From an uncultured Candidatus Saccharibacteria bacterium (GTDB lineage: Bacteria > Patescibacteriota > Minisyncoccia > GCA-002772825), in contig CAYIGM010000003.1 of assembly GCA_964363045.1 (NCBI GenBank), forward strand, positions 1 through 41,540: 41,540 bases of DNA, written 5' to 3'. This document shows, piece after piece, positions 3,172 to 11,055 of this stretch. The translations under genes were made by a program, and so were the position numbers. The notes beneath the pieces were generated by a model. It was not told the origin of the DNA, searched no databases, and was given only the letters and a program-made list of their open reading frames with translations. Position 1 is the first letter of the stretch; each line of letters starts with the position of its first letter.

Positions 3172-3334
3172 CTAGTTCAACACCGAAGGCTCCGGCCTCG
3201 ATCTCTATGTGGCCAAGGAATTCATCAAGAAGCACAACGGCCGCTTTTGGGCGGAGAGCCCCGGGGAGGGGAAGGGGTCTACTTTCTTTGTAGAGTTGCC
3301 GAGGGGGAAGGGCGTGTTGCCGTTAATTTATTGA
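3172..3334 (+). pseudogene. histidine-kinase 3'-end fragment, copy 2 (G2 box to stop)
   Basis: Encodes FNTEGSGLDLYVAKEFIKKHNGRFWAESPGEGKGSTFFVELPRGKGVLPLIY*. An in-frame TAG lies immediately upstream (3173-3175) and there is no start codon. Near-identical DNA to 583-721. Confidence 0.85.
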
Positions 3335-3377: not shown

Positions 3378-4142
3378 ATGAATATTATCGTCTACTCAAA
3401 AGAAGAGGGCTTTGAGGGTGGTGTTAAAAAACTTGGCGATGAATCTTCTCAATGTGGAAAAACTTGCGAGATTATCGAGATAAAAGAATTACCTGGCTTG
3501 TTAAAAAGGGGATATTTTGAGACTATACAATTTAACATATATTTTCTCTCTAGCGATTATCGCATATCACATTTTATAGATATTATTAAAAAGAAAAACC
3601 AAACTGTGGTAAATGAGGCATTTTTAATTCGCGGCATAATTGTATCAAAATTTGAGTCATTGGAAAGAGTGCGTCGCGGTGGTATACACATACCAAGGCA
3701 TATACAACTAACATACGATGATAATAATTTTTTAGATAAATTAATTATGCCGGTTTTTATAAAGTCCAAGAGTCCGAGAGGGTTAGTTATTCGCGTTAAT
3801 GATAAAAAGTCACTAAATAATAGACTTGAATCATTGCCCGAAAAACAGAATTATTATCTTGAAGAAAATGTAAAGAATAAAGATAATATTGAATTAAAAA
3901 TTTATTATATTAATGGTGATGCATACGCACAAGAAATATGTGGTGCCAATACCGATATTCCAAGTTGGTTTCGTGTCGTATTGGATAAGATATCAAAATG
4001 TACAGAGCTAGATGTGTTTTCCGCAGATTTTTTTATTGATTGGGGAAAAGAGGAGTACTATTGTTTTGATATTAATCACGCATCATCTTTTTATAAATCT
4101 GAGAAAGCAAGAGAAGTATTTATTTCTAAAATTTTAAAATAA
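3378..4142 (+). CDS. ATP-grasp-like protein (putative)
   Basis: 254-aa ORF whose layout resembles RimK-type ATP-grasp proteins (PVFIKSKSPRGLVIRV, YYLEENV, ELKIYYINGD, YCFDINHASSF). The assignment comes from motif resemblance only. Confidence 0.45.
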   Translation: MNIIVYSKEEGFEGGVKKLGDESSQCGKTCEIIEIKELPGLLKRGYFETIQFNIYFLSSDYRISHFIDIIKKKNQTVVNEAFLIRGIIVSKFESLERVRRGGIHIPRHIQLTYDDNNFLDKLIMPVFIKSKSPRGLVIRVNDKKSLNNRLESLPEKQNYYLEENVKNKDNIELKIYYINGDAYAQEICGANTDIPSWFRVVLDKISKCTELDVFSADFFIDWGKEEYYCFDINHASSFYKSEKAREVFISKILK

Positions 4143-4143
4143 T

Positions 4144-4836
4144 ATGGATTGGGAAGAGATGTATATGAGTAAAATTAGACGCGCTGGTGGAATAGATCGA
4201 TATCTTCAAAAAAAAGAAGAAAGATCGGCGGGCGCACTCATTGAGCGTATAAGAAAAAATATTAAACCAGGGTCTCGTATTTTAGAGATTGGAACCGGAA
4301 CAGGCGCAATTGGGGCACTGCTCACCAAATACGGCTTTGATATGACGGCAATTGATAACGATTCAAAAATGATAAAAATAGCTAAAAAAACTTTTTCATT
4401 ATTTAATAAGGTTGATAATGTTTATTTATATAATGCTAAAGATATTATTAAAAAATTTGGATTAAATTCGTTTGCTTGCGTAATATCTCATGGGATGCTG
4501 GAACATTATTCAGATATAGAGATAATTAACTTTTTGAAGATACAGCTTTCTGTAGCTCCTCTTGTGATATTTGTTATACCAACATCCTCTATGTCAAAAA
4601 AATATAGATCTAAAGGGATTGGAGATGAAAGATATTTATCAACACAATACTGGAGAGAATTGATCAGAAAAGATTTTTTTATTCAGTATATTTTTGGATT
4701 TGGATTTAAAGAAACAAATTTCCCGCAGTCTTTTGAAATACTATTAAAAAATAATACCATAGCGAGGTTACTTGCTCCATTATGCGGTATTAATGAATTT
4801 TGGATTATCGCTAAAGGGGATAATTTTACTTTTTGA
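4144..4836 (+). CDS. class I SAM-dependent methyltransferase
   Basis: Motif I ILEIGTGTGAIG followed by an acidic residue in AIDND. Tightly follows the preceding gene (2-nt gap). Confidence 0.75.
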   Translation: MDWEEMYMSKIRRAGGIDRYLQKKEERSAGALIERIRKNIKPGSRILEIGTGTGAIGALLTKYGFDMTAIDNDSKMIKIAKKTFSLFNKVDNVYLYNAKDIIKKFGLNSFACVISHGMLEHYSDIEIINFLKIQLSVAPLVIFVIPTSSMSKKYRSKGIGDERYLSTQYWRELIRKDFFIQYIFGFGFKETNFPQSFEILLKNNTIARLLAPLCGINEFWIIAKGDNFTF

Positions 4837-5239
4837 TGAGATGATAAATTTCCTTAAAATATTCTTTTAAGTTGTTATAACTTAATATCGAAGATACCTC
4901 ATTTATTGGTATCCATTTAATATTATCTTCTTTAAATTCCGGCCTTAAAAGGGTATCATCCTCAGATTGTACCAAAAACATTTTTGTCGAGATATTGCCT
5001 CCATTTGGATGTGTATAATTTATACCCGGCAATTCTCGTAGAATTATTATAGATAGCCCGGTCTCTTCTTTGATCTCTCTCCTCATTGTGGCGGTCGGAT
5101 TTTCACCCTCCTCAATGTGCCCCTTGGGAAAAGACCAATCATTTTGTTTTCCACGATAAAGCAGAGCAATTTTATTTTGATCATCTTTGCTCAAAATAAT
5201 GGCGCCGGCTTTTTGTGTTGATTTAGTTTTGATAATCAT
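4826..5239 (-). CDS. NUDIX hydrolase
   Basis: Nudix box GHIEEGENPTATMRREIKEETGL (GX5EX7REUXEEXGU). Confidence 0.85.
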   Translation of the reverse strand: MIIKTKSTQKAGAIILSKDDQNKIALLYRGKQNDWSFPKGHIEEGENPTATMRREIKEETGLSIIILRELPGINYTHPNGGNISTKMFLVQSEDDTLLRPEFKEDNIKWIPINEVSSILSYNNLKEYFKEIYHLIKK

Positions 5240-5289
5240 TACTATATAATAACTTATTTTAATATGTTTATAAATAAGTATTTTTATTC

Positions 5290-5327
5290 AAAAAAATCCC
5301 CCTTATTCTTGATAAAATAAGGGGGGT
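5290..5327 (-). terminator. rho-independent terminator after the P-loop gene
   Basis: CCCCCTTATT / AATAAGGGGG stem, followed on the minus strand by a T-run. Confidence 0.65.
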
Positions 5328-5352
5328 TAAGAAGTAAATTTAGATTAACGAT

Positions 5353-5889
5353 TCATTTGATTTTTCCGGTCACGGAAAGATACTCAAAAAGAGCTTTTGC
5401 TTCTAAAGCTTGTAATTCCTGTGATGCTATCCCGCAAAAAGACCACTCTATTTGAGAGAGAAGGCAGTGATAATCTTCTTTATCATGCCAATGTCGCGCT
5501 CTTCTATCATCAAGAGTTAGATCTTCGGGGCTACTCCTCTTTAGTCTTAGTTCTTTTGGAATAAATACGCCCGCCAAGGTGCTTTCGCTATCTACTTCTT
5601 TAATGGCTCGCCATTCATCGGGGGTATGAATAGCATCAAGAAGAATGACATTATTTGGGTTTCTGTCGTATTCAATTCTCCTTAGCAGGTGATGCATGAT
5701 TTCATACCCTCCCATCGTTCGATAGAGATTACGATACCAATCAGTCCATGCGGGTTCGTTTTCCCCAATGTCAGACCATTCTTTTAGTAGGGCTCGCTTC
5801 AAGAGCCATTTCCATCCAAATCTTTTTTCCATATATTGGCAGAGATGTGATTTTCCCGAACTATGAAAACCAGCAAATCCTATAATCAT
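5353..5889 (-). CDS. P-loop NTPase / small-molecule or nucleotide kinase-like protein
   Basis: Walker A GFHSSGKS at the N-terminus. 178 aa, similar in size to dephospho-CoA or nucleoside-monophosphate kinases. Confidence 0.5.
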   Translation of the reverse strand: MIIGFAGFHSSGKSHLCQYMEKRFGWKWLLKRALLKEWSDIGENEPAWTDWYRNLYRTMGGYEIMHHLLRRIEYDRNPNNVILLDAIHTPDEWRAIKEVDSESTLAGVFIPKELRLKRSSPEDLTLDDRRARHWHDKEDYHCLLSQIEWSFCGIASQELQALEAKALFEYLSVTGKIK

Positions 5890-5916
5890 TTTTTTCTCCT
5901 CATCTTACGGGTGAGA

Positions 5917-7011
5917 TTATTTTTTTTCTGCCATCGCGGCGGACATACAGTGTATTTCGGGGGTGCAGGAATTTCCCCAGAAGGAAGAAAGATTCTGTAT
6001 CATAAAATCCCCGACGCTGGACACTCCTAACGGCTCTAAAAAACCACAAGTATGAACACGGCCATTCGGAGATATGGAAAGTCCTCGCCGTCCAGCTTTA
6101 CACTTGTGCCATGCGAACGGGAGTTTGATTCTTGGGGCGGTATCAATTTCCTTGAGATAATGACCACTGACAATTCCCTTTGGGTCAGAAAGAAATGAAT
6201 CTAGTTTGATGCGCAGAACATTATAGTCATCAGTTGTCAGCATTTCTTGCGCATTACTTGCTCTTCCTGACGGGATTAACCTCCGGATCATTATTGGTAC
6301 ATTTCGGTCAGAGAAATATCGCACCACATGAGGGATTTCCAACAAATTGCTCTTCATGGCAACGAGGTTCACTCTTACAGGAATTTGAGCTTCTATTAAA
6401 AACTCAATACCCTTAAGAGTTTTTTGAAACATTCCAAGCCCTCGAATAGAATCGTGCCTATCTTCGAGGCCATCGACGCTGACAATCGCAACATTTAGAC
6501 CAATTTCGGAAAGACGCTTTGCGACTGTAGCATCGATAAGTGTTCCGTTTGTACCCAGTGATGCGCGTAAACCAGCTTCTCGGATCTTTAAAATGTAATC
6601 AAAGATTGAAGATATAAGAAGAGGCTCTCCTCCGGTGAAGCGAACTTCTTGAACTCCAGACATACAAAAATCCTCAAGGAGAGAGATTTTTCGCTCATGA
6701 GATAACTCGACAGGTAATGATTCACTAGAGTCATTAAGGCAATGAGTGCAGTGTAGATTGCATGCACGAGAGAGCTCAAAAAAGATTATATCTGGCGCGC
6801 TGAAATTATCAGCAGGGAGAGTGCTTGGTTCACGGATGATTACCTCGGTTGACGTCGTCTTCAATTCAATCCGAAGATTATAAGGAACAAGACCCTCGTT
6901 CTTTATCTGTTGGAATTCTAGTGGAGTAATGTATATCCTCTTTCCGGAGACTGCATTGCTGATTGTCCCGCCAAAAAATTCTTTTCTGAGTAATGATGCT
7001 TGTCTTTTCAT
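5917..7011 (-). CDS. radical SAM enzyme with partial SPASM/twitch C-terminal domain and an N-terminal extension
   Basis: CNLHCTHC cluster motif, GGEPLL, and C-terminal CKAGRRGLSISPNGRVHTC plus CTPEIHC. I moved the start to the ATG at 7011, which is preceded by AGGAGG; the ORF track uses the TTG at 7053. Confidence 0.8.
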   Translation of the reverse strand: MKRQASLLRKEFFGGTISNAVSGKRIYITPLEFQQIKNEGLVPYNLRIELKTTSTEVIIREPSTLPADNFSAPDIIFFELSRACNLHCTHCLNDSSESLPVELSHERKISLLEDFCMSGVQEVRFTGGEPLLISSIFDYILKIREAGLRASLGTNGTLIDATVAKRLSEIGLNVAIVSVDGLEDRHDSIRGLGMFQKTLKGIEFLIEAQIPVRVNLVAMKSNLLEIPHVVRYFSDRNVPIMIRRLIPSGRASNAQEMLTTDDYNVLRIKLDSFLSDPKGIVSGHYLKEIDTAPRIKLPFAWHKCKAGRRGLSISPNGRVHTCGFLEPLGVSSVGDFMIQNLSSFWGNSCTPEIHCMSAAMAEKK

Positions 7012-7046
7012 CTTTGTCCTCCTTAAGATAAGTTTATTTTTTTTAA

Positions 7047-7076
7047 TTGACAAAGTACATTTCTAATATATAGAAT
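7047..7076 (+). promoter_or_regulatory. sigma70-like promoter, TTGACA-18 nt-TAGAAT
   Basis: TTGACA at 7047-7052 and TAGAAT at 7071-7076, 9 nt upstream of the ATG at 7086. Confidence 0.55.
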
Positions 7077-7085
7077 GCATATATT

Positions 7086-7181
7086 ATGATTGAAAGTCAA
7101 CATCAAAAATTACAACAAGCGTTTGAGGCACAAAAAAATTGTTTGAATCTTTGTTATCGTAGTAGCTGGACGGCTTCGTGA
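7086..7181 (+). CDS. 31-aa Cys-containing small ORF (MIESQHQKLQQAFEAQKNCLNLCYRSSWTAS)
   Basis: Translated by hand. Lies directly downstream of a strong promoter and divergent from the rSAM gene. Its stop TGA overlaps the GTG at 7178 of the kinase fragment. Confidence 0.3.
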   Translation: MIESQHQKLQQAFEAQKNCLNLCYRSSWTAS

Positions 7182-7447
7182 AAATTATCTTTTCCCTGCC
7201 GGAGGGGAAGAACACCGCCCTTGTGTATATTAAAGATTCCGGCGCCGGCATGAGTGAAGAGACGGTACATAAAATCTTTGAGAAGTTCAACAGGGCTAAA
7301 GACGCCTCTAGGTTCAACACCGAAGGCTCCGGCCTCGGCCTCTATGTGGCCAAGGAATTCATCAAGAAGCACAACGGCCGCTTTTGGGCGGAGAGCCCCG
7401 GGGAGGGGAAGGGCTCAACCTTCTTCGTGGAATTGCCGCTTAGTTAG
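7167..7447 (+). pseudogene. histidine-kinase 3'-end fragment, copy 3 (G1 box to stop); retains an 89-aa ORF from the GTG at 7178
   Basis: Homologous to 448-721: VKIIFS..KDSGAGMSEETVHKIFEKFNRAKDASRFNTEGSGLGLYVAKEFIKKHNGRFWAESPGEGKGSTFFVELPLS*. TAGTAG stops lie just upstream in frame. HisKA and the N-box are missing. Confidence 0.8.
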
Positions 7448-7462
7448 AGAGGGTAAAATATT

Positions 7463-7606
7463 ATGAGAAATAAATTTGAAGAAGAAGGCTTAAAAGTAGA
7501 GAAAAAAGGACAGTTAGATTTTTTAAAAAATGTCCTTAATAGATATGATAAACTTTATTTTGATGGTGCAGCAGATGGTATTAAATATCTAAAGAACATA
7601 AAATGA
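7463..7606 (+). CDS. 47-aa small ORF (MRNKFEEEGLKVEKKGQLDFLKNVLNRYDKLYFDGAADGIKYLKNIK)
   Basis: Translated by hand. Starts 15 nt after kinase fragment 3 and overlaps the next start as ATGA (7603-7606). Confidence 0.35.
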   Translation: MRNKFEEEGLKVEKKGQLDFLKNVLNRYDKLYFDGAADGIKYLKNIK

Positions 7607-8170
7607 AAAATATTGAATTAAAAGTAGAAGTTGATAATTTTGATGATATTATCGGCGTGCTGAAAAAAAGGCGCTAAATATAATGGCGAATTGTTTCAAA
7701 TAGACACCTATTATCATTGTGACCAAGGAAGACTGAAGTTAAGGGAGATAAATCATTCTGTCTTTGAGCTAATTTTTTATAAGAGGCCAAATAAATTTAG
7801 ATCCAAGATCTCTGAATATCAAATCATAGATATGCCAAAAATAAGTCTCGGAAGGATAAAATTAGAGTTGTCATCTATATATGGTGAAAAGAATATTGTT
7901 CGAAAGAAAAGAAATTTATGGATATATAAGAATACAAGAATACATCTTGATGATGTCTATGGCCTTGGAGGATTCTTAGAAATTGAGACAGTGGTGAAAA
8001 ATATTGATATCAAGCAAGCTAGAAAGGAGCACAGTGAAATTATATCCCTGTTGAATCTCTTGGAATATAAAAAAATAGATAAGTCTTATGGGGATTTGAT
8101 CCCCGTCATTCCTGTTAGGAAAGATATTTCGGTAGATAATACAATGATGAAGTGTCCATTGTTTTCCTAA
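7603..8170 (+). pseudogene. CYTH-domain protein (CyaB/class IV adenylate cyclase-like), interrupted by a frameshift in an A7 run
   Basis: MKNIELKVEVDNFDDIIGVLKK reads into a stop at 7675-7677. Removing one A from 7663-7669 restores ...LKKGAKYNGELFQIDTYYHCDQGRLKLRE..., which continues as ORF 7691-8170. Confidence 0.65.
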
Positions 8171-8264: not shown

Positions 8265-8555
8265 GTGGAAAAGGATATTATTATTGAAAAATTAAATAAA
8301 ACCCTGCCGATTTTAAAGGAAAAATACAATGTGAAAAGCATGGGTGTCTTCGGCTCGTATATAAGAAATGAGGCAAAGGCAGGGAGTGATCTGGATATTT
8401 TAGTCACATTTGAAAAACCGATAGGATTGTTAAAATTTATAGAGCTGGAAAATTATCTTTCGGATATAACAGGAATAAAAGTTGATTTGGTATCTAAAAG
8501 GGCGCTTAAGCCCAGAATCGGAAAACAGATATTAGCGGAAGTTGTTAATATATAA
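8265..8555 (+). CDS. mntA: MntA-type nucleotidyltransferase antitoxin
   Basis: GVFGSYIRNEAKAGSDLDILV (GSxxR..SDxD polymerase-beta NTase motif), 96 aa, directly abutting a DUF86 gene. Confidence 0.85.
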   Translation: MEKDIIIEKLNKTLPILKEKYNVKSMGVFGSYIRNEAKAGSDLDILVTFEKPIGLLKFIELENYLSDITGIKVDLVSKRALKPRIGKQILAEVVNI

Positions 8556-8912
8556 GTGATGAAAAGAGATTATCTGGATTATCTTCAAGATATTATTGAC
8601 TCAATAAATGACATTGAGAGCTTTGTTAGTGGAATGAATTTTAATTCGTTTGAAAAAGATAAAAAGACTTTAAATGCAGTGGTAAGGAGTTTGGAAATAA
8701 TAGGTGAAGCTGTTAAAAAAATACCGGATGAGGTAAAAAATAAATACACTAACATTCCATGGAAAAATATGTCGGGAATGAGGGATAAATTGATCCACGA
8801 ATATTTTGGAATTGATGAAGATATCGTTTGGAGGGTTGCAGTAGAGGAATTGCCACCACTAAAGCCGTTTTTTGAAAAAATTTTAACAGAAACGGAAGGA
8901 GAAAATCTTTAA
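8556..8912 (+). CDS. hepT: HepT (DUF86/HEPN) toxin
   Basis: HEPN RX4H motif in RDKLIHEYFGID, 118 aa. The real start is probably the ATG at 8559. Confidence 0.85.
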   Translation: MMKRDYLDYLQDIIDSINDIESFVSGMNFNSFEKDKKTLNAVVRSLEIIGEAVKKIPDEVKNKYTNIPWKNMSGMRDKLIHEYFGIDEDIVWRVAVEELPPLKPFFEKILTETEGENL

Positions 8913-9081
8913 GAAATTCAATAGGGCTAAAGACGCCTCCAAGTTCAACACCGAAGGCTCCGGTCTCGGCCTCTATGTGGCCAAAGAGTTCATCACTAAA
9001 CACAATGGCCGCCTCTGGGCGGAGTCAGCTGGCGAAGGAAAGGGGAGCACCTTCTTCGTGGAGTTGCCGAGTGGGAAGTAG
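8902..9081 (+). pseudogene. histidine-kinase 3'-end fragment, copy 4 (more diverged)
   Basis: Encodes (E)KIFKKFNRAKDASKFNTEGSGLGLYVAKEFITKHNGRLWAESAGEGKGSTFFVELPSGK*. There is no start codon. The homology begins inside the last codons of hepT, in another frame. Confidence 0.85.
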
Positions 9082-9204
9082 TATCTTTCTTGTCTCTCGC
9101 GAATTGATTGACGATCTAATGGGGGGTGGTAGTCTGAAAGTAGAGAAGTTTGGTCTTTGAAAACTTAAACCATCCGCCTTGGCGGATAGAAGGGAGGTAG
9201 AGAG
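9082..9204 (+). promoter_or_regulatory. conserved leader copy D upstream of precursor peptide D
   Basis: Aligned from the TAG (9079-9204 versus 722-847) I count 3 mismatches in 126 nt, and the last 78 nt are identical. TTGACG at 9108-9113, TAGTCT at 9130-9135, hairpin at 9172-9187, GGGAGG at 9192-9197. Confidence 0.6.
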
Positions 9205-9348
9205 ATGAAGAAAACGAATCTAATGCCATTGATTCTTGATTTGGCGGAAAAAGTCGATGTCGTCTACGACAAGAGTGGTAGACAGGTTTGTTTCGCTGGT
9301 ACAACTCAGGGAACTTATGACGAACCTGACTCCGCTGGTCCCGACTAA
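9205..9348 (+). CDS. 47-aa candidate graspetide precursor D (MKKTNLMPLILDLAEKVDVVYDKSGRQVCFAGTTQGTYDEPDSAGPD)
   Basis: Translated by hand. Has a strong SD and sits immediately upstream of an MvdD/MdnC-like ATP-grasp gene. The C-terminus is rich in Thr/Ser plus Asp/Glu and contains TTQGTYDE. Confidence 0.7.
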   Translation: MKKTNLMPLILDLAEKVDVVYDKSGRQVCFAGTTQGTYDEPDSAGPD

Positions 9349-10982: not shown

Positions 10983-11028
10983 CTTAAACACTCAAATCCG
11001 CCGCGGCGGATAGAAAGGAGGTAGAGAG
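10983..11028 (+). promoter_or_regulatory. partial leader copy E (hairpin + SD only)
   Basis: CTTAAAC..ATCCGCCGCGGCGGATAGAAAGGAGGTAGAGAG matches the 3' third of leaders A and D. The stem is kept and the loop differs. Confidence 0.6.
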
Positions 11029-11055
11029 ATGGAAACAAGATGGTTTACTTGCTAG
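11029..11055 (+). pseudogene. 8-aa ORF METRWFTC*, probably the truncated remnant of a precursor-A-like gene
   Basis: The first 11 nt (ATGGAAACAAG) are identical to precursor A, after which the sequence diverges and stops. Confidence 0.45.

Follow-up and report, generated by a model that had tools for sequence, protein, structure and literature searches.

A conserved cassette of radical SAM, P-loop kinase, Nudix and ATP-grasp genes in a Saccharibacteria bacterium and other reduced-genome bacteria

Background

Radical S-adenosylmethionine (SAM) enzymes with peptide-recognition domains are routinely read as signs of ribosomal peptide natural products. In a 41,540-nucleotide (nt) stretch of contig CAYIGM010000003.1 (assembly GCA_964363045.1) from an uncultured Candidatus Saccharibacteria bacterium, hereafter the window, a radical SAM enzyme (rSAM) with a domain resembling these is encoded beside a P-loop kinase, a Nudix hydrolase, an ATP-grasp enzyme and a methyltransferase (MTase). 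The question raised by this locus is whether the five genes work together and, if so, whether on a peptide or on another substrate. A preliminary description of the window had listed five open reading frames (ORFs), and all five were found where it had placed them:

3378-4142, plus strand: ATP-grasp enzyme of LysX/ArgX/RimK type, 254 amino acids (aa)
4144-4836, plus strand: class I SAM-dependent MTase, 230 aa
4826-5239, minus strand: Nudix hydrolase with a complete Nudix box, 137 aa
5353-5889, minus strand: predicted P-loop kinase of small nucleotide-kinase type, 178 aa
5917-7011, minus strand: rSAM, 364 aa counted from an ATG, within a longer TTG-start ORF at 5917-7053

Their linkage, their fusions and their patchy spread confirmed that the five genes form a real conserved module. 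Four genes make up its core, namely rSAM, P-loop kinase, Nudix and ATP-grasp, arranged in this order; the MTase is added to them in some lineages, the window included. We read this module, tentatively and with slightly less than even confidence, as a self-contained, horizontally mobile cassette that builds or tailors a phosphorylated nucleotide-type small molecule. In the literature, covered mostly at title and abstract level, no description of the rSAM/kinase/Nudix/ATP-grasp gene combination was found.

Conservation of the gene module

Related loci were collected with a profile of the P-loop kinase, since a search with the rSAM alignment used generic rSAM motifs and returned true family members in 4 of 80 loci. 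The P-loop profile retrieved 51 metagenome loci, of which four, L135-L138, were dropped since the Walker A region alone matched in them. Synteny was counted on 51 loci including the window, L135 being dropped and L134 and L136-L138 being set aside as partial. The loci whose P-loop match spans 90 residues or more number 52; an identity threshold of 90% groups them into 27 clusters, one of 70% into 20 and one of 50% into 11.

Strong synteny was found across genomes, where the preliminary description had allowed that the genes might not be syntenic in any related one. The rSAM gene lies upstream of the P-loop gene in 45 of the 46 loci having at least 900 nt of upstream DNA, and the Nudix gene downstream of it in 44 of the 45 loci having at least 450 nt, the exception being in both cases L128, a truncated remnant. 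An ATP-grasp gene is found near the P-loop gene in 33 of the 37 loci with at least 1150 nt (exceptions L003, L118, L128 and the short L089). Four genome records hold the genes together: L001 (Zambryskibacteria), L002, L003 and L017 (labelled Mycoplasma sp. CAG:611). The 11-nt overlap between the convergent MTase and Nudix genes (4826-4836) is real as described; it also measures 11 nt in L001 and L089, 14 nt in L090 and 17 nt in L093.

Parts of the module are also joined by gene fusions, of three kinds. The MTase is fused to the N-terminus of the rSAM in gut lineage L017 (567 aa), the Nudix and ATP-grasp enzymes are fused in L105/L117 and in L114 (370-398 aa), and the MTase follows the ATP-grasp enzyme in a 481-aa protein of L100. 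Two further candidates for a P-loop-Nudix fusion, P0159 and P0169, were rejected: the N-terminal kinase half alone is kept in them and is followed by an unrelated Nudix. The MTase, encoded by a separate gene in 6 of 20 lineages, those nearest the window, is a clade-specific accessory of the cassette.

The distribution of the module is patchy. Carriers are labelled Zambryskibacteria, Saccharibacteria, Minisyncoccota, Parachlamydiales and 'Mycoplasma sp. CAG:611'. The P-loop marker was present in none of the 3 genomes of the same genus, and gave three weak matches (E about 1e-11) among 150 relatives. Of the 401 phylum genomes searched, the window's own was the only one to give an rSAM match over the full length (E 4e-164); the remaining seven matches (E 1e-41 to 1e-47) were without the N-terminal part.

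The flanks vary from locus to locus (DnaK/DnaJ, SHMT, ThiI, serine recombinases, a YcaO-nitroreductase, histidine kinases), and Pfam scans of 11 further loci gave no conserved extra partner. Extra genes for Nudix, CYTH or DUF84 NTPase proteins stand beside the cassette in L001, L090, L094, L098, L101 and the window. In four lineages (the window, L001/L092, L096 and L139) a histidine-kinase gene lies no more than about 2 kb from the cassette; its geometry is inconsistent, and no conclusion was drawn on such a link. Single neighbourhoods also hold a nitroreductase-YcaO fusion with DUF2268 (L139, 8879-11191), a second SPASM enzyme with a glycosyltransferase (L098, 5905-7988), and ThiF with an RNHCP protein (L095, 7837-9319). 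In gut lineage L105 (also L106-L113 and L117), a 73-aa ORF (3825-4046) and a Zeta_toxin-family kinase gene (4055-4933, E 2e-29) are placed between the rSAM and P-loop genes; either a toxin-antitoxin pair could have been inserted there or the pathway could have a second kinase.

The radical SAM enzyme

The start of the rSAM had been moved by the preliminary description to the ATG at 7011. This start is preceded by an AAGGAGG sequence also found in the nearest relative, L089, and the N-termini of 30 homologues align there. The enzyme matches Pfam Radical_SAM with E 1.9e-21. In the 30-member alignment the CX3CX2C core is invariant (C84, C88, C91), and about 80 residues precede it, which bears out the N-terminal extension noted earlier. 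Within this extension the motif LLRKESFGGTL..SGKR.Y is nearly invariant, and the region is the most conserved part of the family. Three other cysteines, C304, C322 and C355, are likewise invariant and fit one predicted auxiliary cluster in a twitch-like domain; homologues match the first half of Pfam SPASM, and the twitch domain of SkfB is a structural match. In all, 675 proteins match the rSAM at E <= 0.001, and the best 120 of them are mostly 38-75% identical to it over 93-100% of the query, the N-terminal 80 residues included.

The AlphaFold model of the rSAM (pLDDT 88.5, pTM 0.90) superposes over its whole length on SkfB (Z 28.4, residues 4-359) and on SuiB (Z 27.7, residues 3-363). PqqE, MoaA, BlsE and anSME superpose on it only from about residue 62-71 onward, with Z about 22. 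The family profile gave the same best match, SkfB (E 4e-34), ahead of BlsE (1.4e-27) and MoaA (3.3e-19). The preliminary description had likened the extension to the peptide-recognition domains of enzymes maturing peptides that are ribosomally synthesised and modified post-translationally (RiPPs), and rightly so: it is like a RiPP recognition element (RRE), and the domains with which SkfB and SuiB bind peptides can be superposed on it. The modelled domain has strands at 6-11, 14-19 and 25-28 and two helices (30-39, 44-50), followed by another strand. The canonical RRE fold is described in PMC6231123 as a three-stranded sheet followed by three helices. The rSAM domain thus has one helix fewer, and it gives no Pfam PqqD match. 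In the L114 lineage the rSAM is without this RRE-like domain, and the kinase and the Nudix-ATP-grasp fusion are retained.

The preliminary description had considered that the rSAM could fall into a well-characterised cofactor-biosynthesis family. It scores below every NCBIfam cut-off: the best match is NirJ2 (114.6 bits against 500), and lower scores go to AhbD, like NirJ an rSAM enzyme of the heme and heme d1 group (109.4 against 500), to the MoaA models TIGR02668 (89.3 against 325) and TIGR02666 (87.2 against 284), and to BlsE (74 against 400). Nor is it a viperin. The prokaryotic viperin (pVip) model of PADLOC gave 59.5 bits and was matched at positions 2-152 of its 257 only, there is no viperin model among the best 25 of the 74 NCBIfam matches, and in the structural ranking viperin stands below SkfB, SuiB, PqqE, MoaA and BlsE. 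In a HMMER alignment, R309 of the family aligns with R266 of MoaA, where SkfB has a tyrosine.

The partner enzymes

The P-loop kinase has a Walker A motif that reads GFHSSGKS, and its residues G7, H9, G12, K13, K31, W51, Y52, D85, H88, E92, R115, R118, D123, D127 and R130 are invariant in the family. The window protein gave no Pfam match, AAA_18 reaching E 0.06 only; some members of its family carry AAA_17, AAA_18 or AAA_33, and its atlas neighbours are AAA_18, AAA_17 and AAA_33 proteins. The family profile matches the AdkA-like kinase 3lw7 (E 1.2e-4). Distant relatives recovered from 1.84 billion representatives are AAA_17/18 kinases, several of them fused to a dCMP deaminase and matching the PADLOC dCTPase model with E 1e-98; the family member P0135 matches the kinase part of this model, which stands for an anti-phage dCTP deaminase (E 3e-6). 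No match to polynucleotide-kinase families was seen. An independent link between an rSAM and this kinase type is provided by P0249, a 498-aa protein in which a MoaA-like rSAM domain (185 bits to archaeal MoaA, under the cut-off) is fused to a kinase domain related to that of the cassette.

The 3378-4142 product has no Pfam match. Its AlphaFold model (pLDDT 88.5) retrieved at least 500 PDB matches at E <= 0.001 with ATP-grasp enzymes on top, the best Foldseek match being ArgX (3vpb, E 7e-13), together with LysX (3vpd, TM 0.76); later matches are ITPK1, PPIP5K2, the graspetide macrocyclases MdnC and PsnB, Ddl and RimK. K129, K174, D217 and D231-x-N233 are invariant and E162 nearly so among 20 sequences. 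The protein is a true ATP-grasp enzyme. Its score against the RimK family TIGR00768 is 19.8 bits for a cut-off of 143.4.

The Nudix hydrolase matches Pfam NUDIX (E 3.1e-17, 63.3 bits against 21.1), and its Nudix box GX5EX7REUXEEXGU is complete, reading GHIEEGENPTATMRREIKEETGL in translation. It also gives weak matches, far under the cut-offs, to RNA pyrophosphohydrolase models. The MTase is recognised by Pfam Methyltransf_23, Methyltransf_25 and Methyltransf_11, the first two with E 7e-9 and 8e-9, and has weak matches to rRNA adenine dimethylase models (RrnaAD at E 2.8e-6, Erm, KsgA), again far under the curated cut-offs.

Search for a precursor peptide

If the rSAM is a RiPP maturase, a precursor gene would be expected nearby. 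The preliminary description had proposed a 31-aa cysteine-containing peptide, driven by a strong divergent promoter, as its substrate. The features concerned are:

7047-7076, plus strand: promoter-like site, TTGACA-18-TAGAAT (11/12), facing the kinase fragment and the cassette that follows, with the rSAM behind it
7086-7181, plus strand: listed 31-aa ORF, ending ...NCLNLCYRSSWTAS
7165-7447, plus strand: histidine-kinase 3'-end fragment, copy 3 of 4, at the right edge of the cassette (repeat families D1/D2; HATPase_c positions 35-109 of 111)

The RRE-like premise of this proposal holds; the peptide itself has no homologue in the related loci. With tblastn no match to the 31-aa ORF was obtained in 55 related loci, even at E 0.01 with a word size of 2. 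Past the ribosome-binding site, the sequence upstream of the rSAM gives no alignment with that of L089. The last codons of the ORF sit in the junction with the histidine-kinase fragment, and in the kinase frame two consecutive stops, TAG TAG, are found just upstream. The 31-aa ORF was rejected as a precursor on these three grounds: no relatives, upstream DNA that is not alignable, and an end made by the kinase-fragment junction. As for the promoter, both the site and the ORF exist; the link of the site to the module is unsupported. The region holds 20 promoter-like sites for 15.0 +/- 3.4 in shuffled sequences, so that such sites are not enriched in it, and the promoter region is not conserved in L089. 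The third kinase fragment contains an open 89-aa frame with a GTG start (7178-7447) just downstream of the promoter-like site, and to judge from this arrangement the truncated ATPase fragment could be transcribed.

A wider search compared all ORFs of 25-110 aa from 51 loci with all ORFs. Once ORFs overlapping long ORFs had been removed, no intergenic small ORF was common to more than 2 lineages in these 51 loci. The small-ORF clusters that span lineages are all antisense or shadow frames within core genes, and the sole pair involving the window (7463-7606 with an ORF of L101) belongs to the neighbouring CYTH gene. In several loci the rSAM gene is only 32-131 nt behind the preceding gene, which leaves no room for a precursor gene upstream of it there. 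A precursor may be highly divergent or unlinked.

Organisation of the cassette array

The module lies in a series of cassettes separated by repeated fragments. Besides the right-hand fragment given above, its surroundings comprise:

3175-3310, plus strand: histidine-kinase 3'-end fragment, copy 2 of 4, at the left edge of the cassette (repeat family D2, 92% identical to 586-721)
5298-5325, minus strand: terminator-like hairpin between the P-loop and Nudix genes, a 12-bp stem then a T-run, from a consensus scan

The 3' end of the histidine-kinase gene ending at 721 is present four times (545-844, 3175-3310, about 7165-7447 and 8902-9215). Behind each copy comes a different cargo, the five-enzyme cluster being that between copies 2 and 3. 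Copies of a repeat tail were noted at 815-858, 9172-9215 and 10996-11039, and a terminator-like hairpin with a ribosome-binding site occurs three times in the array. A contig of sequencing run X10 fuses 7051-7240 to 515-830 via the repeat, with 104 letters in common; an alternative cassette order thus exists in the population. Within the module itself, the spacer that carries the hairpin between the P-loop and Nudix genes is absent from relatives, whose two genes are contiguous or overlapping. In run X1 one contig (depth 6.7) lacks the 160 bases 5223-5382, which comprise the Nudix start, the hairpin and the P-loop stop, or has others in their place; as it also differs at sites near this segment, it comes from a related strain with a different junction.

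The other cassettes of the array carry an anSME-like rSAM/SPASM enzyme, a CYTH gene with an MNT/HEPN pair, and an MvdC/D-like ATP-grasp enzyme. Adjoining the five-gene cassette are a 47-aa ORF (7463-7606) and the CYTH-domain gene (7691-8170), whose product spans profile positions 34-179 only, possibly owing to an earlier start or a split gene. Homologues of this pair (54% and 51% identity) are located directly upstream of the rSAM in L101, at 3969-4121 and 4118-4639. The adjoining cassette also encodes a toxin-antitoxin-type pair, a nucleotidyltransferase of MNT type (8265-8555) and a HepT-like HEPN protein (8556-8912). Further on, the ATP-grasp enzyme of 9419-10357 matches the graspetide maturases MvdC/MvdD with 196 bits, under the cut-off of 425. 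It is preceded by a 47-aa ORF (9205-9348, ending ...TTQGTYDEPDSAGPD) that starts exactly behind a copy of a repeated leader, and the two may form a graspetide cassette.

Proposed pathway and alternative explanations

From the genes, folds, catalytic motifs, linkage, fusions and patchy distribution described above we infer a substrate, a product and an order of steps. The small kinase would phosphorylate a nucleoside phosphate, giving the substrate from which the rSAM would abstract a hydrogen atom, leading to a rearrangement or a dehydration; the auxiliary cluster of the rSAM, held by three conserved cysteines only, may anchor this substrate as in MoaA. The ATP-grasp ligase would then couple a carboxylate and an amine, for instance by adding an amino acid, and in the lineages having an MTase the latter would cap the product. 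The Nudix hydrolase would finally trim a pyrophosphate, either for release of the product or for protection of the producer. We favour a nucleotide because the relatives of the kinase are nucleotide kinases, the Nudix gene is constant, and extra Nudix, CYTH and DUF84 NTPase genes occur nearby; the three-cysteine auxiliary site also recalls MoaA, with R309 aligned to R266. It is preferred to a peptide because the loci compared have no conserved small ORF in common, several of them offer no space for one, and the L114 lineage dispenses with the RRE-like domain. Of the earlier suggestion that the genes handle a modified nucleotide by the logic of viperin-plus-kinase operons, the nucleotide part is favoured by the partner genes; the rSAM is no viperin. 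That the cassette is distributed so patchily, and lies in an array of cassettes that recombine, points to accessory work, for instance in defence or antagonism, more than to housekeeping. A bolder version, which we put forward as unlikely in its full form, is that a SkfB-like rSAM with a domain of peptide-recognition type was recruited to a nucleotide and would make, with the kinase, ATP-grasp and Nudix partners and at times the MTase, a hitherto unknown aminoacylated or methylated nucleotide analogue. Ultra-small Patescibacteria and gut bacteria with reduced genomes would employ it as an antimetabolite against viruses or bacteria, a second and independent viperin-like invention.

Several observations weigh against a nucleotide substrate or a defensive role. 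The closest matches of the rSAM are the peptide modifiers SkfB and SuiB, their peptide-binding domain included; the high conservation of its N-terminal domain implies some conserved ligand; and no family membership ties it to a nucleotide-acting enzyme. The correspondence of R309 with MoaA R266 is a single alignment column, and R309 is missing in the L114 lineage. The ATP-grasp enzyme is closest to peptide or protein modifiers (LysX/ArgX, graspetide macrocyclases, RimK), and the anSME-like rSAM/SPASM and MvdC/D-like ATP-grasp cassettes of the array are peptide-type. The cassette was found in neither the viral nor the phage collection searched: viral contigs probed with the P-loop profile gave no relative, and the phage collection, probed with the rSAM, gave six partial core matches only, at 26-33% identity. 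No defence model of the PADLOC library (dated 2023) matches the gene set, single genes matching weakly the pVip core, mad2, PDC-S07 and dCTPase (E 0.0065).

Part of this evidence is what a peptide or protein substrate would lead one to expect, a RiPP-like modification or a maturation, in which the rSAM would dock its substrate through the RRE-like domain and cross-link or epimerise it, the ATP-grasp enzyme would ligate a substrate carboxylate, and the kinase, Nudix and MTase would attach phosphate, nucleotidyl and methyl groups or take them off, the precursor being encoded elsewhere or too variable to be recognised. SkfB and SuiB are the best structural matches with their N-terminal domains included (Z 28.4 and 27.7 against about 22 for core-only superpositions), SkfB is the best profile match (E 4e-34), the N-terminal motif is nearly invariant, the nearest relatives of the ATP-grasp enzyme (LysX/ArgX, MdnC/PsnB, RimK) all act on peptide or protein carboxylates, and the array holds other peptide-type cassettes. 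We nevertheless consider this explanation doubtful: the 20 lineages show no conserved small ORF beside the cassette and several loci have no room for one, the 31-aa ORF exists in the window only, the RRE-like domain has two helices instead of the canonical three and is missing in the L114 lineage, the kinase relatives are nucleotide kinases, and among described RiPP pathways none with a Nudix hydrolase is known to us.

Other substrates were weighed in the same way. P-loop kinases, Nudix hydrolases, MTases and rSAM enzymes all occur in systems of RNA processing and repair, and the five proteins could accordingly be imagined to modify or repair RNA, tRNA or DNA, the kinase acting on polynucleotide ends, the Nudix decapping, the MTase methylating and the rSAM modifying a base or a sugar. 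The weak RrnaAD (E 2.8e-6), Erm and KsgA matches of the MTase and the RNA pyrophosphohydrolase matches of the Nudix go in this direction; all of them are far under the curated cut-offs. Since, moreover, Pfam and NCBIfam scans detected no nucleic-acid-binding domain in the five proteins, the kinase with its 178 aa has the size and type of a small-molecule nucleoside monophosphate kinase with no polynucleotide-kinase match seen, and the ATP-grasp enzyme belongs to an amino-acid ligase clade and is no nucleic-acid ligase, we hold action on nucleic acids to be highly improbable. We give an equally small chance to a salvage or cofactor-type pathway, foreign to any conflict, by which reduced-genome bacteria would process for example a host-derived vitamin, cofactor or nucleoside. 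Its carriers do have reduced genomes (587 kb for that of the window, the others being labelled Patescibacteria, 'Mycoplasma sp. CAG:611' and Parachlamydiales), the gut-lineage cassette stands among housekeeping genes including those of trigger factor and ThiI, and the best sub-threshold NCBIfam matches of the rSAM are the cofactor enzymes NirJ, AhbD and MoaA. A needed route would be expected to be kept more widely than in 0 of 3 genomes of the genus, and the rSAM is a member of no cofactor family; the window cassette, besides, lies in a recombining array next to a toxin-antitoxin pair, and recombinase genes (L105, L119) or an integrase fragment (L090) are found near others. Finally, the region being a mosaic of cassettes between repeated kinase fragments, five unrelated genes might have met there by chance; with order and adjacency conserved in 20 lineages and three kinds of fusion joining the parts, this is scarcely credible.

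A nucleotide-type product thus being the reading that we prefer, the cassette, if that reading is true, is a counter-example to the use of such rSAM enzymes as flags for peptides: an rSAM with an RRE-like domain that is tied to partners of nucleotide type and has no visible peptide gene. The rules of genome mining would then have to be revised, and there may be a new radical reaction, acting on a nucleotide, to discover. Should the product be an antiviral or antibiotic nucleotide analogue, viperin-like chemistry would be extended, with a bearing on defence or host interaction in bacteria with tiny genomes; should a hidden peptide or protein be the substrate, the pathway would be an unusual one, with a Nudix hydrolase and a nucleotide-type kinase. 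The cassette, found in uncultivated groundwater and human-gut bacteria, is small (four or five genes) and self-contained, and is therefore directly testable by expression.

Comparison with known systems

Among known enzymes, LysX, ArgX and RimK are the best structural matches of the cassette ATP-grasp enzyme, which retains their ATP- and Mg-binding residues. It differs from them by an identity of 14-16%, by the lack of a LysW-like carrier gene nearby and by its fusions to Nudix and MTase partners. The rSAM shares with the RiPP maturases SkfB, SuiB and CteB a three-part architecture, made of an N-terminal domain that is an RRE in the maturases and RRE-like in the cassette enzyme, the core and a twitch or SPASM domain, and SkfB has, as the cassette enzyme does, a single auxiliary-cluster domain of twitch-like type. 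The cassette rSAM is about 20% identical to these maturases and has two N-terminal helices rather than three; no precursor gene is linked to it in any cassette lineage, and its conserved partners, a nucleotide-type kinase, a Nudix and an ATP-grasp enzyme, are foreign to those pathways.

MoaA, the GTP 3',8-cyclase, has one three-cysteine C-terminal auxiliary cluster, like the cassette rSAM, and its R266 aligns with R309 of the family. In MoaA this cluster has a free iron that, according to PMC6231123, binds GTP, the nucleotide substrate. The two enzymes differ in cysteine spacing (the family has a glycine at the second cysteine of MoaA) and in the N-terminal domain, absent from MoaA, and the cassette has no molybdopterin gene context.

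The pathways of blasticidin S-type peptidyl-nucleosides are approached from the side of BlsE, an rSAM decarboxylase and the second-best sequence match of the cassette rSAM (E 1.4e-27). In these pathways an ATP-grasp ligase and a methyltransferase act on a nucleoside scaffold, so that the cassette resembles them in combining an rSAM, an ATP-grasp ligase and a methyltransferase. It is without their glycosyltransferase and aminotransferase genes, BlsE is without an RRE-like domain, and the hosts are reduced-genome bacteria, not actinomycetes. The pVips encoded with nucleotide kinases present, like the cassette, an rSAM beside a small P-loop kinase, in the cassette a probable nucleotide kinase, and a patchy accessory distribution, and the relatives of the cassette kinase include viperin-associated kinases and the kinase domains of dCTP deaminases. 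The cassette rSAM matches pVips in the rSAM core only, and in all comparisons they come after SkfB, BlsE and MoaA; viperins, unlike the cassette enzyme, lack RRE-like and twitch domains, and to our knowledge their operons do not carry an ATP-grasp and a Nudix gene. In its working, the cassette resembles viperin-plus-kinase operons or small peptidyl-nucleoside pathways most, and it is a member of neither.

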